From the sequence record OR083247.1: 64,000 bases of DNA; one strand, written 5' to 3'. Origin of the DNA: Escherichia phage Bf23. Positions 1,248-59,545 of this stretch are shown here, in pieces. The notes beneath the pieces are model-generated. The model searched no databases and was not told where the DNA came from. It worked only from the letters and a program-made list of their open reading frames with translations. The translations under genes were made by a program, and so were the position numbers. The stretch's first letter is position 1; each line of letters begins with the position of its first letter.

Positions 1248-1280
1248 GCCAGGTTGCTAGTCGACCTGGCTTTTATTTTA
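1248..1280 (+). terminator. Rho-independent terminator after nrdD
   Basis: Stem GCCAGGT / ACCTGGC with 9-nt loop followed by TTTTATTTT. Confidence 0.6.
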
Positions 1281-1325
1281 TTTGCTTTCAGCTAAAAATA
1301 TATGTATAATAGATTTATAAATTTG
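1280..1325 (+). promoter_or_regulatory. Strong sigma70 early promoter (T5 early-promoter family)
   Basis: TTGCTT (1282-1287), 17-bp AT-rich spacer, TATAAT (1305-1310), then conserved leader ATAAATTTGAGAGGAG carrying the RBS. Confidence 0.7.
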
Positions 1326-1338
1326 AGAGGAGAAAGAT

Positions 1339-1620
1339 ATGAGCGAATTGCTTCCGAAAGTAGATATTTCTCATCTTGGAGAGCCTAGTGAAGAACGTAA
1401 GGCTCTTGATTGGCTAGGTTACTTTGATTATCGTCGTGTTGTTGCAACATGGAATGATAAGAAAGTTAAGAAGTTTCGGGTACATTATGTAGGTAAAGAC
1501 AAGTGGCTCTGGATTGATTATGAAGAATCGAAGGGGTCTACTAAGGCTGTGAAAATTTATTGTATGTATGGGTATTATTATGCTCACTGTGATAAGAATG
1601 AATTTACAGTACAGAACTAA
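1339..1620 (+). CDS. Hypothetical protein (93 aa)
   Basis: ORF directly downstream of the promoter and RBS; no recognisable motif (no CxxxCxxC, so not NrdG). Confidence 0.5.
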   Translation: MSELLPKVDISHLGEPSEERKALDWLGYFDYRRVVATWNDKKVKKFRVHYVGKDKWLWIDYEESKGSTKAVKIYCMYGYYYAHCDKNEFTVQN

Positions 1621-1629
1621 GGAACAAGA

Positions 1630-1833
1630 ATGAAAAACGTAAAACATCTTAAATATCGCTTAATCTATAATGGACGTATGGAAACTGAAGAGCTAGCTCA
1701 ATTAGCTATTAACTCTAATGAGGTTATGGTGCGTGCGCTAGCAATTGAAAAGTTGCGGGCTTCTTATGAAAGTCGTATTATGGAACTAGAGGAGAAACTT
1801 TATGGCATTCTCGAAGCCGATGCTACCCGATAA
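1630..1833 (+). CDS. Hypothetical protein (67 aa)
   Basis: ORF with RBS AAGGAA upstream, tightly packed in the + strand gene chain. Confidence 0.4.
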   Translation: MKNVKHLKYRLIYNGRMETEELAQLAINSNEVMVRALAIEKLRASYESRIMELEEKLYGILEADATR

Positions 1834-2023
1834 TGGCTTAAATGCTGCGCTGGAAAATGCATTGATGCAGCAGTGGGAGGCTGGATATAAGGATGGGGTT
1901 GAATCTTGTGCGAAAATAATGGATATAATGGCTAATTCTGTAGTTGGGAAAGCCCATCCAGAAGTATCTGATATACTCCATAACCTTAGTAAAAACTTCA
2001 GAGAGCAGGTGAAAAATGCGTAG
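1802..2023 (+). CDS. Hypothetical protein (73 aa)
   Basis: ORF overlapping both neighbours in the + strand chain. Confidence 0.4.
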   Translation: MAFSKPMLPDNGLNAALENALMQQWEAGYKDGVESCAKIMDIMANSVVGKAHPEVSDILHNLSKNFREQVKNA

Positions 2024-2852
2024 ATTAATTATTATTAGTGGTGCAGGTTTGAGTGTTGAAAGTGGTGTACGAGCCTTCCGTACTGATACTGCTAGTGGTA
2101 AAGCATTGTGGGATGATTATGACTTAGAAGAGGTATGTAATATTCATGCCTTTCGTGGTAATTTTTATCATAAAACCCACACGTTTTACAACAAACGTCG
2201 TGAAGAGTTAGAAACTGTTGAACCCAATCTTGCACACCTGCGTATTGGTGAATGGTATAAGAAATATCCGGGTCAAGTAGTAAACTTAACTACCAACGTT
2301 GATGACCTTATTGAGCGTGCTGGCGTTCCACATAGTGACATTCTGCACATTCATGGGTATTTAAAAGAGATTGTTGTAGCTGATAGCTACAATAGTAGCA
2401 ATAAACGAGTTATTGATGTTGGGTATAACTCTATTGACCCAGATGATTATAAATGGGTTAAACCTAATGTAGTCTTCTTCGGAGAACATGCTCCAGCATA
2501 TGCAGAAATGTACAATGTTTTTGATGGTATTACCAGTCAAGATATGATCATTGTGGTTGGTTGCTCTAACCAAGTAATTAACTTCTACTGGGAATTATTC
2601 CCTGTTCTTAATCTGACTGCTGCAAAACTTATGGTAGTTAACTACTACGATAGTGCCTTAGCGGCGGAACCAGGCTATCAAGGTATGACTCGTAGTGATA
2701 TGTACCAACTGGAAGATCGTGGTATTCCTTACTGGAGTAAAGGTGCGGTAGATGCTTTCAGTGACCCTGGTTTTATTGCTCGTGTGGAAGCTCATCTAGA
2801 GGGTAGGCCTTATGTGCCGGAGAGAAGGGGAAACAGATATGTCCATAGTTAA
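2016..2852 (+). CDS. Sir2-family (sirtuin-like) NAD-binding protein without the zinc-ribbon cysteines
   Basis: Sirtuin signature motifs read from the translation: GAGLSVESGVRAFR, TTNVDDLIERAG, HIHG, VVFFGE, VVGCS. No CxxC..CxxC Zn module between HG and VFFGE. Confidence 0.7.
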   Translation: MRRLIIISGAGLSVESGVRAFRTDTASGKALWDDYDLEEVCNIHAFRGNFYHKTHTFYNKRREELETVEPNLAHLRIGEWYKKYPGQVVNLTTNVDDLIERAGVPHSDILHIHGYLKEIVVADSYNSSNKRVIDVGYNSIDPDDYKWVKPNVVFFGEHAPAYAEMYNVFDGITSQDMIIVVGCSNQVINFYWELFPVLNLTAAKLMVVNYYDSALAAEPGYQGMTRSDMYQLEDRGIPYWSKGAVDAFSDPGFIARVEAHLEGRPYVPERRGNRYVHS

Positions 2853-3021
2853 ATCTGTATATACACATCCCGATGATATATTTGTATGGGCGGATGGTAG
2901 TTGGTGCTATCGATGTGAGCTATGGGAAATGGACTATAAATCCGATGACTATGGTGTCATATATGTTGATACAGTTGAGTATGATACGTTCTTAGAAAGG
3001 GACAAAAATGAAAATAAGTAA
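2839..3021 (+). CDS. Hypothetical protein (about 60 aa; start chosen at ATG 2839 after RBS GGGGAAACAG)
   Basis: ORF 2812-3021 in the track; the internal ATG with a better RBS is preferred. Confidence 0.4.
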   Translation: MSIVKSVYTHPDDIFVWADGSWCYRCELWEMDYKSDDYGVIYVDTVEYDTFLERDKNENK

Positions 3022-3514
3022 TACTCCAATTATTTTTCTAGATATTGATGGGGTGCTCAACTCGAGCATCTCCCATCACCATGCACCTGATGATGAAAAG
3101 ATTTTCTTTGGAAGTGACTGGGTCTTTAAACCGCTTCTCAAGGCTTTTCAGGACTTTATTCGTCCTTCTCCAATAATGATTGTTGGGGTATCTTCATGGT
3201 TCTCTGTTAGGAATGAGGTGGAGAACGTTCAGATTATGACCGGATTAGATCTTATCGATCGTTTTCTTGGTACAACGGATTTTACTGGTGGTGGATTATC
3301 TAGAGGTAATTCTGTTCTTCGCTTCGTTGAAAAGCATAAGCTCAAACATTGGTGTGTGCTGGATGACGCTGGTGCTATGATGTACCAGTATCCAACGGTT
3401 ATAGTCAACGGTAGAACTGGAATAAATCTTCAAGATTTAAGAGCTGTTAGCTATATGCTAGAATTTAGCCCAGATCTTGAAATGTGTAAATCCTTACAAC
3501 AATTTAAGGTGTAA
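3008..3514 (+). CDS. HAD-superfamily-like putative phosphatase/hydrolase
   Basis: N-terminal IIFLDIDGVLNS resembles HAD motif I (hhhhDxDGxh). Weak call. Confidence 0.45.
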   Translation: MKISNTPIIFLDIDGVLNSSISHHHAPDDEKIFFGSDWVFKPLLKAFQDFIRPSPIMIVGVSSWFSVRNEVENVQIMTGLDLIDRFLGTTDFTGGGLSRGNSVLRFVEKHKLKHWCVLDDAGAMMYQYPTVIVNGRTGINLQDLRAVSYMLEFSPDLEMCKSLQQFKV

Positions 3515-3516
3515 AT

Positions 3517-3945
3517 ATGTTCAATAATGTATTCTCTAAAGAAGCTAACCCAATTTTGGTTAATTTTTGGCGTACTCTTCCAGCCAACCTGTACAATGAG
3601 GCTATTAATGCTCTGAAAATATGGTGTGAGAATAATGAAATCTCCTTTGCTTTTAAGGGTGAGATTGAAGAAGCTCCCTGTATTGGTTTAATTGTGCAGG
3701 TAGAGGATGGTTTGGAAGAGATTGTCGGCTGGAAAGAGTTGGATGAAATGGGGTTGGTTTTTGCATTAAACTATAAGCTATTTATGCCCAATAAACACCG
3801 TATTGTTGTTAACTATAAAACCAGTGAATCTCCGGGCTTTCAAGTTAATGAACATTACGGTTGGTCTTACTCACCGGAAGAAGTAAATGATGGTATCCAA
3901 AAACTTCGTCGTTTTGGTTATCAAATTCCGGGTTTAACCGCCTAA
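3517..3945 (+). CDS. Hypothetical protein, tandem paralogue A (142 aa)
   Basis: Shares CIG..(E)L(D)..MGL(V/I)(F/V)ALN(Y/F)(K/S)LF(M/H)P and a C-terminal ..(I/Y)(Q/V)(I)PGL block with the next ORF. Confidence 0.55.
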   Translation: MFNNVFSKEANPILVNFWRTLPANLYNEAINALKIWCENNEISFAFKGEIEEAPCIGLIVQVEDGLEEIVGWKELDEMGLVFALNYKLFMPNKHRIVVNYKTSESPGFQVNEHYGWSYSPEEVNDGIQKLRRFGYQIPGLTA

Positions 3946-3954
3946 GGGGGCACA

Positions 3955-4347
3955 ATGGAACAAGTATATTGGCGTCAGATTGATCCTAGTTTGGTGAAGC
4001 GTGCGGAGAAGCTGCTACAACGTTGGTTGGGGGTAAGACAAGCCTCCTTCACTTTTCCGGAGCAGCAAATAGACGATCCCTGTATTGGTGTTTTCCTATC
4101 AGGCTACGCTAGGGAATGGGAATTGGATTGGAATGAGTTGTCTGCTATGGGTTTAATTGTTGCACTAAATTTCTCTTTGTTCCATCCACGTGGTTTGGCC
4201 CTATGTCGTGTGCCTGATGACGGTTGTTCGCCCCATCTTTTACAGGTGGAAGATGATATTTGGGAGTACACTCCAGATATTCTCAAAGAAGCTAAAGAAC
4301 AGTTAAACCATGTTGGGATCTATGTTCCAGGCTTGAATGATGAATGA
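3955..4347 (+). CDS. Hypothetical protein, tandem paralogue B (130 aa)
   Basis: Paralogue of 3517-3945 by eye; RBS AAGGGGG upstream. Confidence 0.55.
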   Translation: MEQVYWRQIDPSLVKRAEKLLQRWLGVRQASFTFPEQQIDDPCIGVFLSGYAREWELDWNELSAMGLIVALNFSLFHPRGLALCRVPDDGCSPHLLQVEDDIWEYTPDILKEAKEQLNHVGIYVPGLNDE

Positions 4348-4370
4348 TTTTTATTAGCTGAACTCTGATT

Positions 4371-4396
4371 ACCGAGTCATTTTGGCTCGGTTTTCT
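4371..4396 (+). terminator. Rho-independent terminator
   Basis: Stem ACCGAGTC / GGCTCGGT (one G-U pair), loop ATTTT, followed by TTTTCTCTGT. Confidence 0.55.
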
Positions 4397-4438
4397 CTGT
4401 GCTTAAAGACACTGATAGCACCTTTGGGAAAAATTTAC

Positions 4439-4480
4439 TTGCATGATGCCCAAAATCTTGATATAATATTTATATTGAAT
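4439..4480 (+). promoter_or_regulatory. sigma70 early promoter with extended -10, followed by an atypically long (about 490 nt) untranslated leader
   Basis: TTGCAT (4439-4444), 17-bp spacer, TGaTATAAT (-10 at 4462-4467), family leader TATTGAATTGAGAGA. Confidence 0.6.
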
Positions 4481-4964
4481 TGAGAGACATTAGTAAAAAT
4501 TGATTTTGCTAATTTTTCTTGTTTACAATCCGCGATACGGAACAGTTAGGCTGCCCCATTAAGGGTTGTTTTAACTATTACTAGTGTTTATATTGCATTA
4601 GTTAATCTTCAATTAAGTGATCTGTGTACCCTGAATTCGGAAAGGTAAATCCAAACCGTGCATATTTAGCTCGTTATATAGGCAGAGTTTTATATGGGGG
4701 TGCGAACGAAAAGAGCAGCGAATGGCGGCACGTACAGTAGTCACCTACCAATAGGATAGTGAGGACAAATAGAATCGGCTTAGCGGCCAATGACCTAGGT
4801 TCTATTCTGTATATGAGCGAAGAGAGCACAGCACTGAGATATGATAACTTATTCATATTGTTTGATGATAATTGATGTTTACGTAAATAGTAGTAATAGT
4901 TGTTCTATTCTTTCTGAATAGTCCTAAAGAAAAGATTTCGATTAACCAACATAGGAGTATTGTT

Positions 4965-7754
4965 GTGTTTTCTATCCTCCAAGGTCACGCCGGGTTTTCT
5001 CGTGATTTAGCAACAGGTATTTGGCGAGAAATCAAAGCGGAAGATTATACCTTTGCCAAGCGATTCTCGAAAGAGCATCCAGAAGGTAAACCAGCTTCTA
5101 TGCCCTTCAAATTTGATGTAATAGAAGAGCACGACCCACAAAGCCTTGCCGAAATGTTACCCCTTATGAGACGTTTAACGTCTGATCCTCATATCGTTGC
5201 GGTACGAGGTCGATGTCTTGCACCTAAAAATAATGTGCGGCGTAAGAAAGGTAACTTTAATGTATCTAATCCTAGTAATATTATTGCTATGGACGTGGAT
5301 GGTATCCTAGATACCGGTGGGTACGACAAATTTAATCTTGTTGGTATGGCTCGCCACATTATTAAGATGTTGAATAGTATTAGTGAGGATATGTTCCCTC
5401 TTGATGCAGGCTTTATAGCTCATGCATCGTCTTCGGCTGGGCTAAAACCAGGTATCCGAATGCACTTAATGCTAGAATCTAATGTCAAGGTAACTCAGGG
5501 TCAGCTAAAGTTCTTATTTACATCTATCAACGATAGTAGTAAGCAAAAATTTGGTTTTGATATTGCCGACCTAGCTTATTATTCATCTGTCCAGCTCCAC
5601 TATTTTGCCGACCCCTTATTTAGCGATGGTATTGTTGATCCGTTTAAAGCGGAGAGTAAGCCACGTCTGGTGTATGTTAAAGGTTCGAAAGTAAATTTGC
5701 CCAATAATCTGGTTGACTATGAAACAACTAGAGGGGAGTTTAAGGAAGAGTTTTATTCCTTACTTGATCAAATTAAAGGCAAAAAGATTGCTTCTGATAA
5801 AGTAGAAGAAACCATCAGCGAGTTAGAAGAGGCTGATGATGGGGTGTATTTGCGTATTATCCCCAAACTATACCATAGAGCATTAGAGGATGGGGTTGAT
5901 TTTGCATGGCTAGAACGTGAGATTAAACCAGCTTTATCTGAATATATTGCAACTAAAGATAACAGTCGTAATATTCAAGATTACTTTAATAACGGTCGTA
6001 AGCAGGCTCTCAAAGCGTTTGTTAATAATTCTAAACGTGAGATTCCATTAAATCTGAAAGGTGTTCCACTTAAGAAATTAGAAGTGGATTCTCCACCAGA
6101 AGTTCCATACCTGAAGATTAACATTGTGCCCCCCAAAGGCCATATAACATTTGTTAAGGCAAGTCTTGGTACTGGTAAAACTACGGCAGTAACTAAATGG
6201 CTGGACGCAGGTGTTCTTCCGGGCAACTTTTTAGCAGTTACAAATACTAGAGCACTGGTATCTTCAAATGCCAAGAAATTTAGTGCAGGACAATACGATA
6301 AGTCTGTAGATATGCTCAACTTTAAACGTGGAGCTATTGATCGTATGTCCACAACTATTCACTCTTTGCATAAGTTCAAAAGTTTTATTGGGCAAATAGA
6401 CACCATTTTTATTGATGAATGTGACGCTGTAATGAATGACCTATTATTCGCCCCTGTTGTTAAACAACGTCGCGAGTGTATTCAAGTTCTACGTGACATC
6501 CTCATGACAGCTAAGACTGTAATCTTATCCGATGGTGATATTAGCGCTGAGACGATTGAAGCATATGGTTCTCTAATTGATTTTGATAAACCAGTAGCAT
6601 TTTATAATCATCACCGTAAAATGCTGTCAAAAGCACACGCTTATGAGTTCCCTGATGAATCCAGTATTTGGGTTGCACTTCAGACTTCTCTAGAGATGGG
6701 TGAGAAATCTATTCTAGTATCTGATTGTGGTCCTGATGAGCTGAATGAGAAGGGTATGGCACTACGTCGTAATACTGGTGCGTTAGTTAAGGAAATCCAT
6801 TCAAACTCTACGTCAGATGTGGATATTCGACGTATTCTGGATTATACAACTAATGAGCTAATTGATCAACAAATTGATTGCTTATTATGTAGCCCATCCG
6901 TAACGAGTGGTGTTGACTTTAACTACTTTGATAACGTATTTGTTATTACTAGAACCAGTAATCAAGCGCCAAACATGCGTTTCCAAGCAATCAGGCGCGA
7001 CCGTGGTGCTCAGAATATCTATTATTTTATTGATAAATCCACTAGTGGGTTCTCCGCAGGTTCTGAACAATATAATATTGATGAAGGTTGGCTGGAGTTA
7101 GCACAGCAATTATACGCACGTCGCAGGGAACTGGAATCCAGGAACTATACTAGTACTTTACGTTATTACTTGCTTGATCAAGGTGCAACTATTGATATTT
7201 TCAGCGAAAGCTGGGGAACTATTGAAGGTGCTGGTAAAGAGTACACAGAAGAGCGAATCAAAGCTATTCTGCATTCAACTCCAGATTATTGTGCTCCACG
7301 TCATGCGGATGCGTATGAAGCTAAACTACTTCTTGTTCGCTATTATCATCTTGAGTCTATTAAAGATGTAACAGTTGAGCATGTTGAACAATATATCAAA
7401 GATAAACCGAATGATCGAGCTGCATTCTTCCATAAGATGCACGAGATGTTTTGGGAAGATATTAAGAAGTGTTCAAACGTCACTATCAAACCATTCATAG
7501 AAGCTCTGAAAGGTAAGAAGAAAGATTTCTTCCTTAAAACAGGTCAGAGTGCTAATGCAAAATATGCTAGAATGTATCTTGGTATGATGGGCATTGGTAA
7601 AGATATGAACACGGAGAATATTGTAGACTGGTATAGAACCTATTGTAAAATCGAGTGTATGCCAATTCCTTATAAGTTCATGACTGACGAGGAAAAACAT
7701 ATGCATGATGAAGCAATGTCAGAGCTAGGTGCTAGAAATGACAGTGAAGAATAA
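4965..7754 (+). CDS. Large P-loop ATPase, putative replication-initiation/origin-binding helicase-like protein (929 aa)
   Basis: GTG start with RBS AGGAG; Walker A SLGTGKTT, Walker B-like FIDECDAV. Function inferred from motifs and its position at the head of the replication module. Confidence 0.55.
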   Translation: MFSILQGHAGFSRDLATGIWREIKAEDYTFAKRFSKEHPEGKPASMPFKFDVIEEHDPQSLAEMLPLMRRLTSDPHIVAVRGRCLAPKNNVRRKKGNFNVSNPSNIIAMDVDGILDTGGYDKFNLVGMARHIIKMLNSISEDMFPLDAGFIAHASSSAGLKPGIRMHLMLESNVKVTQGQLKFLFTSINDSSKQKFGFDIADLAYYSSVQLHYFADPLFSDGIVDPFKAESKPRLVYVKGSKVNLPNNLVDYETTRGEFKEEFYSLLDQIKGKKIASDKVEETISELEEADDGVYLRIIPKLYHRALEDGVDFAWLEREIKPALSEYIATKDNSRNIQDYFNNGRKQALKAFVNNSKREIPLNLKGVPLKKLEVDSPPEVPYLKINIVPPKGHITFVKASLGTGKTTAVTKWLDAGVLPGNFLAVTNTRALVSSNAKKFSAGQYDKSVDMLNFKRGAIDRMSTTIHSLHKFKSFIGQIDTIFIDECDAVMNDLLFAPVVKQRRECIQVLRDILMTAKTVILSDGDISAETIEAYGSLIDFDKPVAFYNHHRKMLSKAHAYEFPDESSIWVALQTSLEMGEKSILVSDCGPDELNEKGMALRRNTGALVKEIHSNSTSDVDIRRILDYTTNELIDQQIDCLLCSPSVTSGVDFNYFDNVFVITRTSNQAPNMRFQAIRRDRGAQNIYYFIDKSTSGFSAGSEQYNIDEGWLELAQQLYARRRELESRNYTSTLRYYLLDQGATIDIFSESWGTIEGAGKEYTEERIKAILHSTPDYCAPRHADAYEAKLLLVRYYHLESIKDVTVEHVEQYIKDKPNDRAAFFHKMHEMFWEDIKKCSNVTIKPFIEALKGKKKDFFLKTGQSANAKYARMYLGMMGIGKDMNTENIVDWYRTYCKIECMPIPYKFMTDEEKHMHDEAMSELGARNDSEE

Positions 7755-7971
7755 AAAATGGGAAACAAGGAAGTTTCCAGTAAAGGAACGTAAAGTTCCT
7801 GTTTATGATACTTCGGAAAAGCTATGTAGGGTGGTACCACATAGATTAGCTGGTATCCCTAACATATCCGAGTGGTTACTTAAACAACGGAGGACTAACG
7901 TATCTCTTCGCATAGGGTTTGAGTTAGATAAAGTATATGCTGAACTTTCTTCTTTGCTCAAAGAATCATAA
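7729..7971 (+). CDS. Hypothetical protein (80 aa)
   Basis: ORF overlapping the 3' end of the upstream gene; no motif. Confidence 0.35.
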   Translation: MLEMTVKNKKWETRKFPVKERKVPVYDTSEKLCRVVPHRLAGIPNISEWLLKQRRTNVSLRIGFELDKVYAELSSLLKES

Positions 7972-7977
7972 AAAATT

Positions 7978-8030
7978 TATTTGCTTTCAGGAAAATTTTT
8001 CTGTATAATAGATTTATAAATTTGAGAGAG
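7978..8030 (+). promoter_or_regulatory. Strong sigma70 early promoter, near-identical to the classical T5 PN25 promoter as I recall it
   Basis: TTGCTT (7981-7986), 17-bp spacer, TATAAT (8004-8009), leader ATAAATTTGAGAGAGGAG; surrounding sequence TCATAAAAAATTTATTTGCTTTCAGGAAAATTTTTCTGTATAATAGATT. Confidence 0.75.
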
Positions 8031-8040
8031 GAGTTTAAAT

Positions 8041-8989: not shown

Positions 8990-9004
8990 CTACTTAAAAA
9001 TTTC

Positions 9005-9050
9005 AGTTGCTTAATCCTACAATTCTTGATATAATATTCTCATAGTTTGA
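9005..9050 (+). promoter_or_regulatory. sigma70 early promoter
   Basis: TTGCTT (9007-9012), 17-bp spacer, TATAAT (9030-9035). Confidence 0.6.
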
Positions 9051-9092
9051 AAGAACTATTCTGTTTAATTCTTAATTAAGGAAATATAAAAT

Positions 9093-10210: not shown

Positions 10211-10220
10211 TTTATAAATG

Positions 10221-10275
10221 TATTTGCTTTCAACTCAGTTTTGTTATATAATATTTATATAAATTAATGAGAGAT
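10221..10275 (+). promoter_or_regulatory. sigma70 early promoter
   Basis: TTGCTT (10224-10229), 17-bp spacer, TATAAT (10247-10252), leader ATAAATTAATGAGAGA. Confidence 0.65.
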
Positions 10276-11255: not shown

Positions 11256-11395
11256 TACATAATCCTTTGCTACCCATCTACCATATCGGAATTATAAAGT
11301 GGTTATTGACATTTTCGCCGCTTAGGTATATACTATTATCATTCAGTTGAGGGATAGAAAGTTATGGCGAGGGTAAGCAAAGTTAGTTAAAATTG

Positions 11396-11445
11396 TAGTT
11401 GCTAAATGCTTAAATACTTGCTATAATATTTATATAAATTGATAA
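11396..11445 (+). promoter_or_regulatory. sigma70 early promoter inside the ligase split
   Basis: TTGCTA (11399-11404), 17-bp spacer, TATAAT (11422-11427), leader TATAAATTGATAAGGAAG. Confidence 0.6.
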
Positions 11446-11454
11446 GGAAGAAAT

Positions 11455-14552: not shown

Positions 14553-15439
14553 GTAGAATAACAGAACTACTTGATCTGAAAGGCATTGAATATAAAGACA
14601 CAGGTGGGGACATCCTCATCTGTTGTCTCAATCCAGATCATGACGATAAACACCCAAGTTTGCGTATTGACCCTGAAACAGGTATTATGCACTGCTTGAG
14701 TTGTGGCTTCGGTAAGGGTATACCGAGCATTTACCATTATTTTAATGAGACTCAGTACCGACAGTCCCCAAGGCTATCGCAAGTACGTAAAAAGATTTCA
14801 GAGATTAGGAATGGATCAACGAATCTTGCAATCCCTGAATCTGCTTACCTTTTCGAAGGTGATTTCCGAGGTATAAGTTCTAAGACCTTGAAGAAATATT
14901 TTGCTTTCCAACACCAAGCAGACTGGGAAGGCAGAATTGTATTCCCAATCACAGATGCTGTTGGACGCAATATCCTATTTTTGGGTCGTTCTATAAACAG
15001 TTCTGCCCCTCCTAAATACTTAGTAAAACCAAAACAAGTTTCACCACCAATTTTTCCTGTACGATATAATACTCCAGTCCTTATTCTAGTTGAAGGCATC
15101 TTTGATATGCTAAACCTAGAGGATAATGGTATAGACTATGCTTCTTGTTGCTTTGGTACACATCAGTTTACTTCGGATAACATTGCAGATAAGTTCAGTC
15201 CTTATATTATTGCCGGCGTAAAAGTTGTTGTTATCTTACTAGATAATGATGCTTCTGGTAATAAAGCTGCACAAGCATTGGCCAAGCTAATTCGTACAAA
15301 AACGCGTTTAACACCTATAGTTGCTAACTTTCTTCTGCCTGAAGGTAAAGACCCTGGTGACTTAAATAAAGAAGAGATTGATATGTTAGCAAAACGTATT
15401 GAAATTTTAGTTGCTGAATCGCTTAAAGATTTGGTATAA
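14549..15439 (+). CDS. DNA primase (DnaG-like: CHC2 zinc finger plus TOPRIM)
   Basis: Zinc finger CCLNPDHDDKHPSLRID..HCLSCGFGKG; TOPRIM-like LVEGIFDMLNL and LLDNDASGNKAA. Confidence 0.8.
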   Translation: MSRITELLDLKGIEYKDTGGDILICCLNPDHDDKHPSLRIDPETGIMHCLSCGFGKGIPSIYHYFNETQYRQSPRLSQVRKKISEIRNGSTNLAIPESAYLFEGDFRGISSKTLKKYFAFQHQADWEGRIVFPITDAVGRNILFLGRSINSSAPPKYLVKPKQVSPPIFPVRYNTPVLILVEGIFDMLNLEDNGIDYASCCFGTHQFTSDNIADKFSPYIIAGVKVVVILLDNDASGNKAAQALAKLIRTKTRLTPIVANFLLPEGKDPGDLNKEEIDMLAKRIEILVAESLKDLV

Positions 15440-15465
15440 TAGTCCTAAATAACTGAGGAGCTACT

Positions 15466-15795
15466 ATGGAATATGTATATATTTATGAGGATGTTCCAGT
15501 ATACGATAGTATAACACACGAAGAGGTTAAACTAGAGCTGTTTACAGTACTAGAGTCCCTTAATAAACGGAAGGATTTTCATTTATTTGGTGATCCTAAA
15601 TTACCTGCATCTTATATTTTCTTTAAAGTAAAAGATACAGGTCAAGAGGTGTATCTAACTTATGATTGGGCTGTTGTAGAAAATACTGAGCAATCTATGA
15701 AAGTGTTAGGCGCTTTTCTGCGTATAGATGAAGAATTTCAGGCACTAGAAAAGCAGCGCAATGAAATGCGTAAATTACTACATACCTATAAATAG
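15466..15795 (+). CDS. Hypothetical protein (109 aa)
   Basis: ORF with RBS GAGGAG upstream. Confidence 0.45.
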   Translation: MEYVYIYEDVPVYDSITHEEVKLELFTVLESLNKRKDFHLFGDPKLPASYIFFKVKDTGQEVYLTYDWAVVENTEQSMKVLGAFLRIDEEFQALEKQRNEMRKLLHTYK

Positions 15796-15804
15796 TATTT
15801 GCTA

Positions 15805-15850
15805 TTATCCCAATATTTTGATATAATATATTGGTAAGTTAGAGAAGAAA
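15805..15850 (+). promoter_or_regulatory. sigma70 promoter (extended -10, weak -35) upstream of the DNA polymerase gene, followed by a leader hairpin
   Basis: TGaTATAAT (-10 at 15832-15837); leader contains inverted repeat TGGTAAGT..ACTTACCA. Confidence 0.5.
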
Positions 15851-18946: not shown

Positions 18947-20295
18947 AGGTTGTTATATCTAATAAAGCCTATTTCAAGCCCGATGATGAACTTTGGGATT
19001 ATTGTAGTAAGCAAACCACTTATCACATAGAGACAATGACTAGTAAATACCCTATCATGTATAAGAATAGTGGTGTTGTTGCCAAAGAGATTAAGTGGAT
19101 TCCTATTACGCGTCTGGACTTACTAGATGCTAAAGGAGTAAAATACGAATTAGTCGATAAACGCACATTAGCTCCGGTAGATATACCAAAACCTAAGTTC
19201 AAGCTGCGTGAAGAAGATCAGCTTCCAATATACGAAGAATGCGATGATACCTGTATTATTAATGGTAAGCCTGGATTTGGTAAAACTATCCTAGCCCTTG
19301 CACTTGCGTATAAATTTGGCCAGAAAACTTTGGTAATCTGTACGAATACATCCATTCGTGAAATGTGGGCGGCAGAAGTTCGTAAATGGTTTGGGTTTGA
19401 ACCAGGCATCATAGGTTCTGGGAAATACAATATTGATCCACCAATTGTAGTCAGTAATATTCAAACAGTGAATAAACATGCGAATAATCTTTCTAAAGTA
19501 TTCGGTACTGTTATAGTTGATGAAGTTCACCATTGTGTGGCTACAACTTTCACTAACTTCCTAGAAATATCATGTGCTCGCTATAAAATTGGACTATCTG
19601 GTACACTAAAACGAAAAGATGGTTTACAAGTTATGTTCAAAGATTTCTTTGGATATAAGATATTTAGCCCACCGGTTAATAATACTGTTGCACCTACAAT
19701 CCATAGGTACTCCGTGCCTGTTGAGCTATCAGGAAACCAAAACGTACCGTGGGCATTACGTGCTAACGATGTGTATAACCATCCTGAATATCGAGAGACT
19801 ATTATAAACCTAGCACATTTATATGTGAATATGGGACATAAAGTACTCATTGTAAGTGATAGAACAGAGTTAATCCAAACAGTACTAGAAGCACTATCTC
19901 AGCGAGGAGTCACAACCTATGAGATTATTGGCGCAACCCACTTAGATGACCGATTAAAAATTCAGGAAGATATAGCAAAAGGTGGGCCTTGTGTGCTTGC
20001 AGCAGCTCAAAGTATCTTCTCGGAAGGTATTTCCCTTAATGAGCTATCTTGTTTAATAATGGGAAGCCTCATTAATAATGAATCTCTCATTGAACAGCTT
20101 GCAGGCCGTGTTCAACGTATTGTTGATGGTAAACTCGACCCTATTGTTGTAGATCTAATTATGAAAGGTGGCACTGGGCTAAGACAGGCTTCTGGACGTA
20201 TGGCAGTATATCGTAACAATGGGTGGAAAACTATTACTATGACTCCGGAGAAAGCAGTTCAATTAGCTAAAATTGCATTTGGCAACAGCTCATAA
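18943..20295 (+). CDS. SF2 DNA helicase (DExH box), T5 D10-like
   Basis: Walker A GKPGFGKT, Walker B VIVDEVHH. Confidence 0.75.
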   Translation: MKVVISNKAYFKPDDELWDYCSKQTTYHIETMTSKYPIMYKNSGVVAKEIKWIPITRLDLLDAKGVKYELVDKRTLAPVDIPKPKFKLREEDQLPIYEECDDTCIINGKPGFGKTILALALAYKFGQKTLVICTNTSIREMWAAEVRKWFGFEPGIIGSGKYNIDPPIVVSNIQTVNKHANNLSKVFGTVIVDEVHHCVATTFTNFLEISCARYKIGLSGTLKRKDGLQVMFKDFFGYKIFSPPVNNTVAPTIHRYSVPVELSGNQNVPWALRANDVYNHPEYRETIINLAHLYVNMGHKVLIVSDRTELIQTVLEALSQRGVTTYEIIGATHLDDRLKIQEDIAKGGPCVLAAAQSIFSEGISLNELSCLIMGSLINNESLIEQLAGRVQRIVDGKLDPIVVDLIMKGGTGLRQASGRMAVYRNNGWKTITMTPEKAVQLAKIAFGNSS

Positions 20296-20325
20296 ATGAT
20301 GTATAATATATACATAAATTTGAGA
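20279..20325 (+). promoter_or_regulatory. sigma70 early promoter (first of a tandem pair)
   Basis: TTGGCA (20279-20284), 17-bp spacer, TATAAT (20302-20307), leader ACATAAATTTGAGAGAGAAAG. Confidence 0.55.
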
Positions 20326-20378
20326 GAGAAAGTTTCGGATTGATAAGAAAGTCCGAAGCAGAAAAATAAAAATTTTAG

Positions 20379-20425
20379 TTGCTAAATTCTCTCGAAATCT
20401 AGTATAATATATACATAAATTCGAG
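20379..20425 (+). promoter_or_regulatory. sigma70 early promoter (second of the tandem pair)
   Basis: TTGCTA (20379-20384), 18-bp spacer, TATAAT (20403-20408), leader ACATAAATTCGAGGAGAAAAC. Confidence 0.6.
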
Positions 20426-20515
20426 GAGAAAACAAAAATTAAATTCTTCGATTATGAAAAGCTATACTTACTAGCTAGAGGAAATTCCGACCTAATTATT
20501 AAGCTCTTTAAAAGA

Positions 20516-47165: not shown

Positions 47166-47168
47166 TTA

Positions 47169-53022: not shown

Positions 53023-53047
53023 ATAATCTCCTATTATAAAAATGTAT

Positions 53048-53095
53048 TTGCTTTTATCTCTCTATTTTGCTATAATAGACTCATAAATTAGAAAT
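53048..53095 (+). promoter_or_regulatory. sigma70 early promoter for llp
   Basis: TTGCTT (53048-53053), 17-bp spacer, TATAAT (53071-53076), leader TCATAAATTAGAAATGGAGAG. Confidence 0.65.
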
Positions 53096-53107
53096 GGAGA
53101 GATAAAT

Positions 53108-53679: not shown

Positions 53680-53786
53680 TGGAATGGGTAATTATTGCAT
53701 TGCTAGGGATTGTGATTATCGGGCAATGTATTTTAGATAATCACTTAGCTAGAATTGAAACTTTATTAACGGAGAAACGTAAATGA
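53679..53786 (+). CDS. Small membrane protein (35 aa; not in the ORF track)
   Basis: ATG overlaps the upstream stop (TAATG); MEWVIIALLGIVIIGQCIL.. hydrophobic helix. Confidence 0.35.
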   Translation: MEWVIIALLGIVIIGQCILDNHLARIETLLTEKRK

Positions 53787-54215: not shown

Positions 54216-54379
54216 TTAACTTTTTGCCAAATTTCATAAGATTACACATGAGGATGTGCTCACTGCCTCCGGCGAAAATACTTAGTCTGCTAACCGCCAC
54301 ACCCGTTATTATTACCATGCTAACTGTTTCACCCTGCAACCATTTTAATTGCAAGGTGAAACAATTTCAACCTTAATTA

Positions 54380-55114
54380 TTATGCGACTTTTAGTTTTTC
54401 AATATATTGTTGCGGGCTGCAACTATATTCTGCGCGTTCTTCCTCGGTCATACTTTCCCAACATAATTGCAAGCGATCGGCTAGGAACTGATAATCATTA
54501 TCATCGTCGAGCGATTCATCGATAAAGGTTTCACCTATCAATGTCACGCCGATTGATAGAATATCATTAATAGCTTGTGCGTCCAGCGTTTTAAACCCGT
54601 ATGATGCCGCCGCCGATAGCACGCCCTTATGATCATCAATCATCGTGAAATCAGCGTTTGGATATAGCTGTTTAAATAACTCAAAGTAATGGCTTTTATA
54701 TATAGCATCTTTACTGTGGTATATTTCGCTAACTTTATCAGCCTCAAAATATTTGTGTAGTGTGTCGCGGGAAAATACACGGATATTACTATCCCCACGC
54801 CCTCGCAGTCCTTGTTTGCGTAGGTAATAATAATCTGACTTACTCATCAGTCGAGCGGTACAAATAATGTTTAACGTGTTAACGTCATTCATACATTGGC
54901 GCATATATGTAACAAGCGGCAATAGTGTGTCCTGCATTATTAAATCATGTTTACATGCTTCATTCTTATATTTATTTAAATCTAAATTACCATCGTTATC
55001 AAAGCAAGGCGCTACGCGATGGAATGAGTTAACGATAGTGCCGTCCAGATCCCAGATCATGACGCGGGAAATATGCGGGAAATTACGGGTAATATTCGTT
55101 TTAACTTGATTCAT
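54380..55114 (-). CDS. dmp: 5'-deoxyribonucleotidase, HAD family, T5 Dmp-like (244 aa)
   Basis: HAD motif I in VMIWDLDGTIVNS; size and position among pre-early-type genes. Confidence 0.65.
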   Translation of the reverse strand: MNQVKTNITRNFPHISRVMIWDLDGTIVNSFHRVAPCFDNDGNLDLNKYKNEACKHDLIMQDTLLPLVTYMRQCMNDVNTLNIICTARLMSKSDYYYLRKQGLRGRGDSNIRVFSRDTLHKYFEADKVSEIYHSKDAIYKSHYFELFKQLYPNADFTMIDDHKGVLSAAASYGFKTLDAQAINDILSIGVTLIGETFIDESLDDDNDYQFLADRLQLCWESMTEEERAEYSCSPQQYIEKLKVA

Positions 55115-55188
55115 TTTGTTACGTTCTCCATTAAAGGGATTAAATTAAATTAATCCAGCCCACTGGATGGGCTGGGCTATTCCAGCTA

Positions 55189-55584
55189 TTAAAGACCATA
55201 AGCCAACGCATCAGCGATGACGGTAATATCTTCACCCGATACATCGGAACGGATGCCCGCGCATGTAAATACTTTTGCGCTCATTAGCTGATCATCAAGG
55301 CAAGCGGGACAAGGGGCAACTACTGCGAAAGCTAAACCTGATTTTACGGCATCGATGATAATCGTTTCTTGTTTCACCGTGTCAATATAAACGCCTTTCG
55401 CCTTGATGCGGCTGGATAACTTGCCCGTGGTATAGGCGAAAGTAGTGATCTGTAGCGCCTCGTTAAACTCGATTAAATCATCGACAACGTGACCGGCCTC
55501 AACGTGATACCGCTCACCATTAGAATAAACTAGGACGATAGAAGACTGAGCGCGATCGAATGGAATACGGTTAGAAATAGCCAT
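55189..55584 (-). CDS. Hypothetical protein (131 aa)
   Basis: ORF in the - strand pre-early chain; GC-richer codons. Confidence 0.5.
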   Translation of the reverse strand: MAISNRIPFDRAQSSIVLVYSNGERYHVEAGHVVDDLIEFNEALQITTFAYTTGKLSSRIKAKGVYIDTVKQETIIIDAVKSGLAFAVVAPCPACLDDQLMSAKVFTCAGIRSDVSGEDITVIADALAYGL

Positions 55585-55653
55585 GTTTATAACTCCAATT
55601 AATTTAATAAACTTTTATAGCGGCGGTATATTTCAACCGCCAACCTGATTTAT

Positions 55654-57318
55654 TTACGCAAAAAATTTACCATTCTTAAAGTCAATCAAGGTGCGCTGAC
55701 CGTTTGCATAGGTAATAACATGCGTTTGTGTCCAGCTTGACGCGCCAACGTTGTAACCCATGTCCAGACTACCAGACACGCCAGCGGTGTATACGCCGCC
55801 GTAAATACTGGCGGTATGAGTGTGCCCCGTGTTCAGTTTACCCAATTTCTTAAATTGCTTCGGATTGCCACGGCTCCCGTTAATGCCATTGTGACCGTGT
55901 ACGCCGCATTCAATGCCTGCAATCTTGAAAGATTGGTCAGTCGTTAGGAAAATGGCGTTAAACTCGCAACCTGCAACCTTGCGCAACGCATAATCTAGCA
56001 CGTTGAAAGTATCGTCTTTTTCTGCAATAGCTCCATAAATCGCGGCATTAAGGCGGTGATATAGTTCGGCGTTGGCTGGATCGTCTTTGATGTTAGCATT
56101 ACGATCATCCAGCCAACGGGATAGCGCCAGATCGTGGTTTGATTCTACGATGATCGTTTGAGAAAAATCGCGCTCCATTGATTCCAACACGCGACCGGTA
56201 TCGATAAGATCATCCAGAACTTTATCACGTCCGGCGGCGTATTGTTTTGCTAGGAATACACCCGAAGCGCGATTGTGATGGTTGCGTGATGTAAAATCAT
56301 GCACGTCATGGACAAATTGATATTTTGGTTTAAGAATATCAAGCAAGCTATTTTCGCCAGCCCATGACGCAGCGGCGCAATCATCATCCAGTTTTTCAGC
56401 GTGGACGTCGCCATATTGTAAACCTAAAACGTGCCCCGTTGTTTCATAGCATCCGGCGGGAGTAGCGCAAACATTCAGATCGTAAAAAACGCCGCTTTCG
56501 TCCATAGTTTCAAGCTGGCGCACAAAAAACTCACCGTCCTCGTCGAACTCGACAACAAGCGCACCGAAATTATGCAACGCTTCCGCTTTCTGTCCTGCTT
56601 TCTGCTGGATGTAGTTTTTTAGCGTTGCCGTGCCGGTTGAATACATACGGCGCACTACTTCACCTTTTAAAGCTGGGACGCTCTCGGCGGTGATTTTAGC
56701 CGCTCCAATTGCCAGACCTTCAAGGTTGAGCGCGGTTGCAGTTTCAGCAAATCCAGAAAGCGGATAATCTGCGGTAGGTAAAACGTTAATTTCAGCCATG
56801 AAAGCAAAGCGGCGATTATTCAAAAACACGTTTTTATTGCAGATATATTTGTCAAATGCGGAATCATATTTGATTCCTTCGGCGCCCTCGCCATTTTGAA
56901 AACCGTTTTTGTTATAAATAAACTTGCTAACCAGCAAATCAGCGCCGATATATTTAGCAAATTGCTCCAGTGAGGCTAAAAAGTTTTTATGCGGGAAAGT
57001 ATTATTCTGAATCGACGTAATAATAAAGCGTTTACCCTGCTTTACTTCCCAGCTTTCAACCGTGCTAGAAACAATCCCCGCCGCTTCTGGGCGCTCATCG
57101 TTTTTAATGGCTTTTGCTACTTTCGCCGCTTTCGGTTTAGCTGGTTTATTTGCTTCCAACCAATCACAAATCGCGGTCGAGTGTTTTGTAGTATCATAGA
57201 CCGCCTTTGATATATCGTCGCAGACTTCCAGTTTAGTGGCGCGCAGACGTTTACCATAGAAATTAAAGTCAGCGGCCATTTTCAGGATAACGGTTTGTTT
57301 TTCTGCGGAAATAATCAT
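55654..57318 (-). CDS. A1: Pre-early protein A1-like (554 aa), putative metallophosphoesterase-type nuclease
   Basis: Size close to that recalled for T5 A1; metallophosphatase-like His clusters (..GVHGHNGINGSRG.., ..GHTHTASIYGG..); neighbours dmp and A2-like genes. Confidence 0.65.
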   Translation of the reverse strand: MIISAEKQTVILKMAADFNFYGKRLRATKLEVCDDISKAVYDTTKHSTAICDWLEANKPAKPKAAKVAKAIKNDERPEAAGIVSSTVESWEVKQGKRFIITSIQNNTFPHKNFLASLEQFAKYIGADLLVSKFIYNKNGFQNGEGAEGIKYDSAFDKYICNKNVFLNNRRFAFMAEINVLPTADYPLSGFAETATALNLEGLAIGAAKITAESVPALKGEVVRRMYSTGTATLKNYIQQKAGQKAEALHNFGALVVEFDEDGEFFVRQLETMDESGVFYDLNVCATPAGCYETTGHVLGLQYGDVHAEKLDDDCAAASWAGENSLLDILKPKYQFVHDVHDFTSRNHHNRASGVFLAKQYAAGRDKVLDDLIDTGRVLESMERDFSQTIIVESNHDLALSRWLDDRNANIKDDPANAELYHRLNAAIYGAIAEKDDTFNVLDYALRKVAGCEFNAIFLTTDQSFKIAGIECGVHGHNGINGSRGNPKQFKKLGKLNTGHTHTASIYGGVYTAGVSGSLDMGYNVGASSWTQTHVITYANGQRTLIDFKNGKFFA

Positions 57319-57414
57319 AGTAATAAAGCTCCATTAAAGGGATTAAAAACGTTTGTTATTGGCAAATATTGCCAAATATAACGCCTTGAATAATAGGCGT
57401 TATAATTTGCAACA

Positions 57415-57612
57415 TTAATTTAAAGGCATAAGGCTAGAACTAACACCACAAGCAACGGCGGCAATAAAACAAATCAGACCTAAACGCTTTGCCAATTTAG
57501 ACTTACGCTTAAAATAATATGAATCTAAATCATTTTGAAAGTATGCAAATAATAATGAGGCCGCCATAATAAATAAGCCTAGAATTAACGATTCAGTGGG
57601 GTAAAAGATCAT
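57415..57612 (-). CDS. Small membrane protein (65 aa; start moved to ATG 57612 with RBS GGAG)
   Basis: Two hydrophobic helices; the upstream in-frame extension to 57660 would read through a perfect 20-bp palindrome. Confidence 0.4.
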   Translation of the reverse strand: MIFYPTESLILGLFIMAASLLFAYFQNDLDSYYFKRKSKLAKRLGLICFIAAVACGVSSSLMPLN

Positions 57613-57669
57613 TTTAATAACTCCAGTCAAAGGGAAATTATAGTGGGGAATATTCCCCACTAATTAAAT

Positions 57670-58086
57670 TTATTCACCTGCGGCTTGTTTTACTTCATCG
57701 GCAACGCCTAACAGTTGCGCCACGGCGTCCAGCGTTTCTAACTTTGCGCTTTCCAGACTTGCCAAATCGTCGGCGTCTTTGATAATGCCGGAATCAATAG
57801 CATGTTTAGCGATAACGCGTACATAATGAGCTTTGCGAATTGAACTACCGCCGCCAACTTTGCGCGGCTTATCGCTTTTCTGATACGCTTTCGCGCTGGT
57901 CAATTTTGAGCGAACAGACACGGGAGAAGCCGCGCCAACTGTTTTAGCAATCTCTTTCAGGCCGTCGCTGTTGGCGAACTCCAAGCCGTTTTCGTTGATC
58001 AACTGTTGATACATGGTAACAGCCTGTTGGGTGTTTTCTTCATTCCAAGCAAATTTTGCGGATTTTTCGGTTTTAACGTTAGCCAT
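57670..58086 (-). CDS. A2: Pre-early protein A2-like, putative DNA-binding protein (138 aa)
   Basis: Size and position relative to the A1-like gene; Lys/Ala-rich. Confidence 0.55.
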   Translation of the reverse strand: MANVKTEKSAKFAWNEENTQQAVTMYQQLINENGLEFANSDGLKEIAKTVGAASPVSVRSKLTSAKAYQKSDKPRKVGGGSSIRKAHYVRVIAKHAIDSGIIKDADDLASLESAKLETLDAVAQLLGVADEVKQAAGE

Positions 58087-58184
58087 GATTATAACTCCTA
58101 TTGAATTAATTTAAGGGATAAGATTAACATAATGTTAATCGTTATATACCCCAAACTACTGGGGTATATAAAGTTAACACTAAG

Positions 58185-58436
58185 TTATAAAACAGCTTCC
58201 CATTTTTCGTTGCGTTGAACAACCTTTACAACGTCGCCGGATTTAACGCGAACGCTAAAAACGGTTTTGCCGTTGTTACTACGTTCATTTTCAGCGTATA
58301 CCGCGTCGATTGTATCAAACGGCATAAGCGCCACACCTTTAATGCGTTCGGTTTTTCCGGTTAATTCGTCCGTTTTAGTAACGAAAGGAATAAAAACGGA
58401 TTGACCAATTTTAGGCGCGGTAATAACGTTTTTCAT
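58185..58436 (-). CDS. Hypothetical protein (83 aa)
   Basis: ORF with RBS AGGAG; leader contains a 10-bp-stem hairpin. Confidence 0.45.
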   Translation of the reverse strand: MKNVITAPKIGQSVFIPFVTKTDELTGKTERIKGVALMPFDTIDAVYAENERSNNGKTVFSVRVKSGDVVKVVQRNEKWEAVL

Positions 58437-58663
58437 AGTATAAACTCCTAGTTATTTGGGGATTGTTCCGCATTACCTGCTAGAAAGTAGCAGGTAATAA
58501 GAAAAAATCCGCTCGCCAATATAATCAATTTAAAGAACTCCACTCAGGCCGCTATATCCCAGTTAGGGGGCGGGACACATTATGGTAAGTGCCGACCGTC
58601 AAATTGTATCAAGTTATCGCTCTTATCGAACTGGGTACATCTTAAAGCCTATCGGCTAGGGTG

Positions 58664-58867
58664 TCAAACAATTTTTTGCAGTTTTTTATGATTTTCTTTC
58701 AGGTCAATCATAATATTTCGCCAGATCATTTCCAGACCTTGCTGGCGGCCTTTCTTGTACTGCGTGAATCTATATCTTACGGATTGTTGAGCTACTGTCA
58801 ACAATTTTTTAGTAGTAACATCTAATTTTTTAGCTGGTTTACCAGTGATCAAAAGCGTTTGTTTCAT
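58664..58867 (-). CDS. Small basic protein (67 aa) bracketed by 24-bp inverted repeats
   Basis: Lys/Arg/Gln-rich ORF with RBS AAGGA; inverted repeats at 58633-58654 and 58904-58927. Confidence 0.4.
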   Translation of the reverse strand: MKQTLLITGKPAKKLDVTTKKLLTVAQQSVRYRFTQYKKGRQQGLEMIWRNIMIDLKENHKKLQKIV

Positions 58868-59320
58868 ATCTGCGATTCCTTATATAATTGATAAGTTTAC
58901 CGCCGATAGACTTTAAGATGTACCCAATTTTTAAAGAGCGTGGCGGTAAACTTCCCGCCGTGTAGTTCGTCATTGCCGCCCTACGAGATAAATAATAGGG
59001 GATTCCCAAAAATGGCGCAACCTTATTTTTGTAAAGAAACGTAAAGAAAGCAAATACTCGCAAGGTGTCCGGCGATTGCCCAAGTTTAAAGGAAACGGGC
59101 GCACGAATACCATAAAACCCAGCAGGTTGGCAAGTAATTTTTTCATTTATATTTGCCTTACCCTACTTGACAAAATCTAAAAAGCTCGTGGTAGCGATAA
59201 ACGAGGGTAGGCAATGCAATGGCCTGGCTAAAACTTTCATCGCGTTCTAGGGCGTTTTAGGCGCATTCTAGCCTTGTTGATAACTTATCCCCAGAAGCAA
59301 AAATGAAATTTTCCTAGTTA

Positions 59321-59351
59321 TCCACTTGACTTTTATTTTCCAGTGGATAAC
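59321..59351. promoter_or_regulatory. Inverted pair of DnaA-box-like sequences
   Basis: AGTTATCCACT..AGTGGATAACT around a 14-bp AT-rich centre. Confidence 0.5.
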
Positions 59352-59494
59352 TACTTATTTTATGAAATAAATTAATTGACTTTTATTTGTTAGTATGCAT
59401 CGGAAAGATAGCAGACTAATAATTGCTAGGATGATAATCATGCTGGTGGATTGTAACGGCTTAAACTATCAGCGGACTATTAATCACGGAAAAT

Positions 59495-59545
59495 CTCGTT
59501 AGCTAACTAACTATTTCATGATGTATAATATACATATAAATTAAT
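59495..59545 (+). promoter_or_regulatory. Early-family sigma70 promoter facing the + strand cassette
   Basis: TATAAT (59524-59529) with the family leader ATATAAATTAATGAGAAATAA; -35 is weak (AGCTAA). Confidence 0.5.

Follow-up and report, generated by a model that had tools for sequence, protein, structure and literature searches.

The early promoters of bacteriophage T5 are the closest described relatives of the sites studied here. Several of them, including a pol promoter, were validated by primer extension in infected cells, and an alignment of the early promoters shows a -35 element, a -10 element, an UP element and an ATATT discriminator (Klimuk et al., 2020, Fig. S5, PMC7472727). In the T5 record AY587007, segments that span the -10 element and the leader are marked as copies of "repeat b" and "repeat c", and the left arm holds about 30 further annotated early promoters. 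For the promoter N25, it has been shown that polymerase is bound extremely tightly and that output is limited at promoter escape, that the native sequence escapes at +11, faster than any variant tested, and that replacement of +3 to +20 lowers full-length RNA about 10-fold (PMC12464699). In this study, we have analyzed 64,000 nucleotides of Escherichia phage Bf23 (OR083247.1; this whole stretch is called the window), in which eleven promoter sites share a -10 hexamer and a conserved transcribed leader. Our investigations confirm that this eleven-site family is made up of strong early promoters of the T5 type, with the classic N25 among them. Based on the evidence below, we give a probability of roughly 85% to the reading that these are sigma-70 early promoters whose leader is an initial transcribed sequence favouring escape, with a second role as 5' untranslated region (5' UTR) in five copies. 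The promoters, the repeats and the role of the N25 initial transcribed sequence are already known for T5; the finding is correct but ordinary and adds little to T5 biology.

The relationship to T5 is close. Positions 1-20000 of the window are about 97% identical to AY587007 54516-75292 and 95-97% identical to many other Tequintavirus genomes, and positions 44000-64000 are about 91% identical to T5-like phages. The window runs from rightward early replication genes through leftward late structural genes to a short rightward early block with llp, and ends in a partial right terminal repeat. All eleven sites proposed in a sequence-only reading of this DNA are present, and all lie on the + strand (Table 1; we name each site by the first base of its TATAAT). 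They are found in the replication-gene block (1-21 kb) or before llp, with the exception of 59524, which is in the pre-early terminal repeat with no gene downstream. The proposal that these are early promoters is borne out by AY587007, where nine of the eleven coincide with annotated features, either "putative early promoter" (T5P31-T5P35, T5P37, T5P38 and T5P41) or "repeat c copy 7". As for the other two, the 15822 site has a T5 orthologue that is not among the features listed from AY587007, and the 59524 site has a T5 homologue without promoter annotation.

Anchored on the -10 hexamer, the ten best sites give a consensus of AAAAwTkTA at -45 to -37, TTGCTt at -35, TATAAT, a discriminator A-t-a-T-a-t and, from +1, ATAAATTnGAGAG. 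A is found at each of -45 to -42 in 8-9 of the ten, and the AT-rich, 6-nt discriminator has A at -6 in all ten and T at -3 in eight. The previously proposed architecture (a TTGCTT-like -35, a 17-bp AT-rich spacer and TATAAT) holds for most sites: allowing 17 +/- 1 bp, it is present in 10 of 11, with an 18-bp spacer at 20403, and the outlier is 59524, with TTAGCT and 19 bp. The spacers themselves are only mildly AT-rich (59-76%, against 60.6% for the window). Ten sites are full members, in line with the number claimed, but "near-identical" was an overstatement, because mean pairwise identity is 64% over -45 to +14 (range 53-81%) and 66% over +1 to +14. Positions had been given correctly as -35 starts for nine sites; of the other two, 15832 falls near +1 (the -35 is at 15799) and 59524 is the start of the -10. 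The leader motif, in the form in which it had been written, matches nothing, because it implied a 7-nt gap where the discriminator is 6 nt.

With the register corrected, the conservation of the leader is clear. TATAAT-N6-ATAAATTWGAGAG with up to three mismatches occurs at 9 sites; the expectation from shuffles is 0.13, and none of 100 shuffles gave as many as 9. In leave-one-out scoring of +1 to +14, each of the eleven leaders exceeds at least 99.2% of 1377 other TATAAT-like sites of the window. Positions +1 to +20 of 8004 are identical to the T5 orthologue, 1305 and 20302 are identical over +1 to +13, and the other sites match at 6-13 of 14 positions, the divergent variants being 4462 (ATTGAATTGAGAG), 9030 (ATAGTTTGAAAG) and 15822 (GTAAGTTAGAGAAG). 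The T5 left arm contributes 15 more matches to the -10 plus leader, all on the early-transcribed strand; when no leader is required, TTGC-N16-18-TATAAT occurs 33 times in the window and the T5 left arm, and again all 33 are on the early-transcribed strand. A generic sigma-70 scan was uninformative (49 sites, 58 expected, two family members flagged) because TTGCTT shares no more than 3 of 6 positions with TTGACA. Rfam gave no match in the window at gathering thresholds, and the leaders therefore fit no described RNA family. An inverted repeat between an upstream AAATTTAT and ATAAATTT in the leader is visible in N25; judged by eye, it is inconsistent in the other copies and was discarded.

The copy at 7981-8030, which had been taken for the classical PN25, is indeed the N25 orthologue. 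Over -50 to +20, it differs from T5 N25 by a single substitution, T for C at -1, and there is one extra T near +21. This T (position 8015) is C in 28 of 28 other Tequintavirus loci, and the paralogue 1305 has T at -1 in every phage examined; the T at 8015 could therefore be a point mutation or a short conversion from 1305. Klimuk et al. (2020) give TATAATAGATTCAT as the non-template strand of N25 from -12 to +2 (PMC7472727), which places the N25 +1 at the A of ATAAATT. For this copy, then, the published start site falls downstream of the proposed element, as the sequence-only reading required.

The interpretation of the leader depends on what it is locked to. The motif always begins 6 nt after TATAAT, whereas the start codon moves: it is at +23 to +26 in five copies (1305, 8004, 10247, 11422 and 53071), it is at +52, +56 and +102 at 9030, 15822 and 20403, and 4462, 20302 and 59524 have none in the first 200 nt. 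The motif is therefore tied to the promoter and not to the ribosome site. For two T5 copies (repeat b copy 3 and repeat c copy 3), the next annotated feature is a tRNA gene rather than a coding sequence. In long-leader copies, the information content drops to background after about +13, near the published escape point of +11. Because the published N25 data fit this promoter-locked register, we read the conserved leader chiefly as an escape module. From the shared sequence and the shared constraint, we infer that the escape role of the N25 leader may extend to the whole family.

In the mechanism that we favour, the promoters would be read by unmodified host RNA polymerase in a sigma-70-dependent manner through five elements: an A-rich block upstream, a -35 that departs from the consensus (TTGCTT), a spacer of 17 bp, a -10 with the full consensus (TATAAT) and the 6-nt AT-rich discriminator. 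The A-rich block is UP-like and would be contacted by the alpha subunit. Transcription would start at the A of ATAAATT, and the conserved leader would be the initial transcribed sequence, copied while polymerase is still held at the promoter. As polymerase would be bound very tightly, escape would be the slow step, and an AT-rich, purine-rich stretch from +1 to about +13 would allow quick escape at about +11 with few abortive products. In five copies, the same 22-25 nt would also serve as the whole 5' UTR, in which GAGAG(G) would merge with the Shine-Dalgarno sequence, and the AU-rich 5' end would fall within the ribosome-binding region. The sequence-only reading had proposed a role for the leader beyond polymerase binding; the N25 evidence (PMC12464699) bears this out, although the documented role is promoter escape, which had not been named.

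To follow the constraint among orthologues, we took from 30 viral contigs the orthologous region that surrounds the gene following N25, and six promoters were aligned with 13-26 unique orthologues each. Mean column variability was 0.002 for the -10 hexamer, 0.009 for +1 to +7, 0.013 for the A-rich upstream block, 0.017 for both the discriminator and +8 to +14, 0.026 for the -35 hexamer, 0.06 for the spacer, 0.06-0.07 for downstream coding sequence and 0.12 further upstream, figures which are descriptive and not independent observations, as the orthologues are closely related. In these alignments, +1 to +14 is as constrained as the -10 and -35 hexamers. The N25 orthologues have three different spacers, and the sequence 5' of -45 has been replaced outright in some phages, while -12 to +17 is invariant; this argues for selection and not for hitch-hiking. 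Two phages with a downstream protein of only 68-73% identity, IME260 of Klebsiella and DU_PP_V of Pectobacterium, also keep TATAAT-N6-ATAAATT at the orthologous promoters, and in these phages the variant leaders ATAGTTTGAA and GTAAGTTTGAGAAG are kept at their own loci.

These data bear directly on the possibility that the copies resemble each other through common descent and copy-correction only, promoter units having been duplicated or recombined with a functionless leader carried along. Such events do occur: the copies form sub-types, entered in the T5 annotation as repeats b and c; 1305 and 8004 agree fully over -12 to +13; the leaders of 10247 (+1 at 10259) and 59524 are identical at 14 of 14 positions; and a 375-bp cassette (15442-15816) has a copy of the -10 region at either end, which shows that there is recombination inside promoters. 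Against this stand the spacer divergence among orthologues beside an invariant -12 to +17, the persistence of the motif in the Klebsiella and Pectobacterium phages, and the 10-fold change in output when the N25 sequence is changed (PMC12464699). We consequently give little credence to descent and copy-correction as the whole explanation, and pure hitch-hiking through duplication seems unlikely from the alignments. A role mainly at the RNA level, which the earlier suggestion of mRNA stability or translation initiation comes close to, is harder to set aside, and we hold it as a tentative alternative. Here, the AU-rich unstructured 5' end and the purine tract would form a compact ribosome-binding site, that is, an S1-binding enhancer plus Shine-Dalgarno sequence, and might also protect the 5' end of early mRNAs. 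It would account for the start codon at +23 to +26 in 5 of 11 copies, for the best anti-Shine-Dalgarno pairing, which starts at +10 in 1305 and +12 in 8004 and overlaps GAGAG, for the first 15-25 nt being predicted unpaired in most short-leader copies, and for TGAGAG at Shine-Dalgarno distance from ATG in a distant relative. Complementarity to the anti-Shine-Dalgarno sequence 5-10 nt before the start codon is present at 1305, 8004, 11422 and 53071. At 10247 it is weak, since GAGAG pairs at -2.9 kcal/mol and lies 10 nt from the ATG; at 4462, 20302, 20403 and 59524 there is no match, and 9030 and 15822 have a separate Shine-Dalgarno sequence further downstream. The lock of the motif to the -10 rather than to the start codon, the perfect copy at 20302, which has no start codon within Shine-Dalgarno reach, the long leaders (52 to about 490 nt) at 4462, 9030, 15822 and 20403, and the tRNA genes that follow two T5 copies all speak against it. 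On register and long-leader copies, we rejected the leader as a Shine-Dalgarno sequence as sole explanation. A part in translation initiation nevertheless has some support for about half of the copies from the pairing of their short leaders with the 3' end of 16S rRNA, which at its best overlaps or abuts GAGAG, and from a 5' part predicted to be unpaired, being plausible for the five with a start codon at +23 to +26, although it cannot explain leaders of 52 to more than 200 nt or the T5 tRNA-gene copies. We infer a second constraint, at the level of 5' UTR and translation, in these five of the eleven copies; a second, RNA-level constraint on the leader is likely.

It is also conceivable, though we consider it unlikely, that a phage factor recognizes -6 to +13 as a class label and shuts early promoters, or spares late ones, at the early-to-late switch; this factor could be gpT5.026, by way of sigma region 1.2, or else a DNA-binding protein. 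In one variant of the idea, T(+2)A(+3)nnnT(+7) would be a -10-like element that holds sigma-70, causing a promoter-proximal pause at which the factor loads. In the work of Klimuk et al., ATATT is common to the discriminators of the T5 early promoters, polymerase bound the -12/+2 non-template strand 8-fold more weakly with gpT5.026, and early transcripts rose about 5-fold when gpT5.026 was lost; in their proposal, the differing response of early and late promoters to gpT5.026 is due to the early-type discriminator (PMC7472727). As ATAAATT is absent from the T5 late and pre-early promoters, this proposal means that the block could also be a class label; the exact leader sequence, being lineage-specific and not universal, is in keeping with such a role. 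Conversely, no factor is known to bind -6 to +13 DNA, the effect of gpT5.026 on transcription in vitro is weak (PMC7472727), and the aligned sites have no consistent dyad symmetry, judged by eye. For the pause, TAnnnT is found at +2 to +7 in 25 of 34 family sites and in 2.5% of control sites, which is the conservation of ATAAATT in another form. To our knowledge, no sigma-dependent pause has been reported on N25 despite decades of in vitro work, and we found none in the literature. It is rather improbable that -6 to +13 is an address label by which early promoters are switched off and late ones left on with host sigma-70 polymerase only; if it were, it could be read by a phage protein such as gpT5.026 or act through a sigma-held pause at the -10-like TAAATT at +2 to +7. 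The class-specific block is still a reasonable place to look for the T5 early-to-late switch, which works with host polymerase only (PMC7472727).

Several observations, in addition to the close relatedness of the orthologues, weigh against the escape reading. Commercial "T5 promoter" vectors have this region replaced by a lac operator, and their expression is still strong. Experimental evidence on the initial transcribed sequence was found in the literature for N25 alone among the family members. In metagenomic T5-like relatives with about 41% protein identity, ATAAATT is missing from otherwise similar promoters, so that host polymerase by itself does not determine the exact sequence. Furthermore, in the window and T5 left arm, the motif is stronger in short-leader copies: +1 to +7 carries 7.9 bits in 17 short-leader copies (ATG at +20 to +28) and 3.2 bits in 15 long-leader copies, a gap to which one-base shifts of register and a few non-members among the long-leader copies contribute, and +8 to +14 carries 4.6 bits against 2.8. 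This gap is not predicted by a pure escape function and indicates either that the RNA itself is constrained or that units of promoter plus ribosome site were duplicated recently. Overall, the earlier interpretation is partly supported.

Table 1. Promoter sites of the window, with the related and the different-type site found beside them.
Site (feature)	Span	Strand	-35 (first base)	Spacer (bp)	-10 (first base)	+1	Leader	Start codon or next feature
T5P31 / repeat c copy 5	1272..1330	+	TTGCTT (1282)	17	TATAAT (1305)	1317	ATAAATTTGAGAGG	start codon +23 (1339)
T5P32	4429..4487	+	TTGCAT (4439)	17	TATAAT (4462)	4474	ATTGAATTGAGAGA (variant)	
T5P33 / repeat c copy 6, N25 orthologue	7971..8029	+	TTGCTT (7981)	17	TATAAT (8004)	8016	ATAAATTTGAGAGA	start codon +26 (8041)
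T5P34	8997..9055	+	TTGCTT (9007)	17	TATAAT (9030)	9042	ATAGTTTGAAAGAA (variant)	start codon +52
T5P35 / repeat b copy 4	10214..10272	+	TTGCTT (10224)	17	TATAAT (10247)	10259	ATAAATTAATGAGA	start codon +26 (ligase part 1)
T5P37 / repeat b copy 5	11389..11447	+	TTGCTA (11399)	17	TATAAT (11422)	11434	ATAAATTGATAAGG	start codon +25 (ligase part 2)
DNA polymerase gene promoter	15789..15847	+	TTGCTA (15799)	17	TATAAT (15822)	15834	GTAAGTTAGAGAAG (variant)	TTG start codon +56
Tandem upstream member, "repeat c copy 7"	20269..20327	+	TTGGCA (20279)	17	TATAAT (20302)	20314	ATAAATTTGAGAGA (perfect)	
Tandem downstream member, T5P38	20369..20428	+	TTGCTA (20379)	18	TATAAT (20403)	20415	ATAAATTCGAGGAG	next open reading frame +102
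llp-like lipoprotein gene promoter, T5P41	53038..53096	+	TTGCTT (53048)	17	TATAAT (53071)	53083	ATAAATTAGAAATG	start codon +26
Doubtful member, non-coding terminal repeat	59489..59549	+	TTAGCT	19	TATAAT (59524)		ATAAATTAATGAGA	no open reading frame after
Relative with other leader, same A-rich block	15401..15460	+	TTGCTG	18	TATAAT (15435)		AAATAACTGAGGAG	drives 109-aa open reading frame 15466-15795
Different-type promoter-like site, T5P36	11296..11354	+	TTGACA (11306)	17	TATACT (11329)		ATTCAGTTGAGGGA	about 90 bp 5' of the 11422 promoter

Some sites have features of their own. Terminator-like hairpins lie just 5' of the 1305 promoter (1247-1271) and upstream of the 10247 promoter (10179-10207), and the leader of the 15822 promoter folds into a 5' hairpin. 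The 20302 and 20403 promoters (20302-20428) form a tandem pair with a separation of 101 bp; the helicase open reading frame (ORF) extends with its 3' end into the first, behind which lies a short hairpin (TTTCGGA...TCCGAA), and T5 annotates the second alone as a promoter. The 15435 and 11329 sites were found by a weight-matrix scan. We regard 59524 as a doubtful member, given its poor -35, its 19-bp spacer, the lack of a gene after it and the lack of annotation in T5; its upstream block scores 7.3, against 15-21 for the other sites. Its -10 plus ATAAATTA is kept in 27 of 30 related loci, where the neighbouring protein is 54-96% identical. It sits between clusters of TTATCCACA (the DnaA-box consensus) and one-mismatch variants in the non-coding parts of the terminal repeat (59275-59350, 59634-59715 and 63239-63320). 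These clusters hold 5 of the 6 exact copies in the window; the window-wide count is not above chance (25, with 18.6 expected), and it is the clustering that is the notable feature.

The helicase / origin-binding gene at 4965 is separated from the 4462 promoter by about 490 nt (4474-4965) that contain no + strand ORF of at least 40 aa. This stretch is predicted to fold better than shuffles (z = -2.95), 4400-5000 has no Rfam match at E <= 1, and 9-12 related phages lack the central part of the stretch, 4588-4892, or have other sequence there. The stretch may represent a small RNA or a long, structured 5' UTR. In T5 AY587007, the tRNA-Thr and tRNA-Val genes, as annotated, extend with their 3' ends into two "repeat b" promoter segments (20521-20595 and 23930-24008 within the 8000-55000 extract of that record); either the promoter lies inside the tRNA gene end or one of the annotations is off.

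The promoters also mark places where these genomes differ. The extra 375 bp at 15442-15816, with a 109-aa ORF (phrog_35630, no known function), is absent from T5 and 28 related loci and is present in 50 of about 570 T5-like phage records, the best match being phage SP15 (99.2%). Its end-points fall in copies of the -10 region (15430-15441 and 15817-15828), and T5 has one hybrid promoter where there are two here, a layout that fits insertion or deletion by recombination between promoter copies. Likewise, T5 homology stops at +11 of the 1305 promoter, at a breakpoint common to 13 related loci, and the first operon gene after this promoter is replaced, as compared to T5, by a different 93-aa ORF (phrog_7953, no known function; window 1327-1633). 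We considered promoters as recombination hot-spots in general; a raw 4-fold enrichment (10 of 63 breakpoint clusters against 4%, P = 2e-4) was lost with an intergenic-matched null. Among breakpoints touching intergenic DNA, 9 of 18 were in promoter zones, where a fraction of 0.41 was expected (P = 0.31), which is no excess; the general claim is therefore unsupported here.

What this study adds is modest: across T5-like phages of Escherichia, Salmonella, Klebsiella and Pectobacterium, the start region is as constrained as the -10 and -35, and this constraint is stronger where the leader is the whole 5' UTR. It also illustrates that a scan of raw sequence can recover a genuine regulatory family.

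Finally, the family can be set beside four described systems. The PeSL promoter/stem-loop cassettes of T4-type phages, known from modular gene shuffling (PMC2839356, PMC4122927), are likewise repeated early-promoter units flanking small ORFs without known function, and one indel of the window (15442-15816) has both ends inside -10 region copies; unlike PeSL, the window promoters have no consistent stem-loop partner and no breakpoint excess after the intergenic control. With the sigma-70-dependent promoter-proximal pause elements, such as that of lambda PR', the likeness is a non-template-strand TAnnnT at +2 to +7, for which AT-richness may be explanation enough; T5 has no known Q-like factor. 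The N25 downstream region described as an escape determinant (Kammerer et al., 1986, EMBO J 5:2995, as cited in PMC12464699) is the same sequence, ATAAATTTGAGAGAGGAG; that published work concerns a single promoter, whereas the conservation across the family and between phages described here comes from sequence comparison. The nearest system is the set of T5 early promoters itself (T5P6-T5P38 and T5P41, with repeats b and c; Klimuk et al., 2020, Fig. S5, PMC7472727). The window differs from T5 by the T at -1 of the N25 orthologue and by the extra promoter and ORF cassette before the polymerase gene (15435-15816), and its 20302 and 59524 sites are without promoter annotation in T5. Nevertheless, the loci are orthologous, at about 97% DNA identity, and the two sets have in common the UP-like block, TTGCTT, the 17-bp spacer, TATAAT, an ATATT-type discriminator, an A at +1 and the leader.

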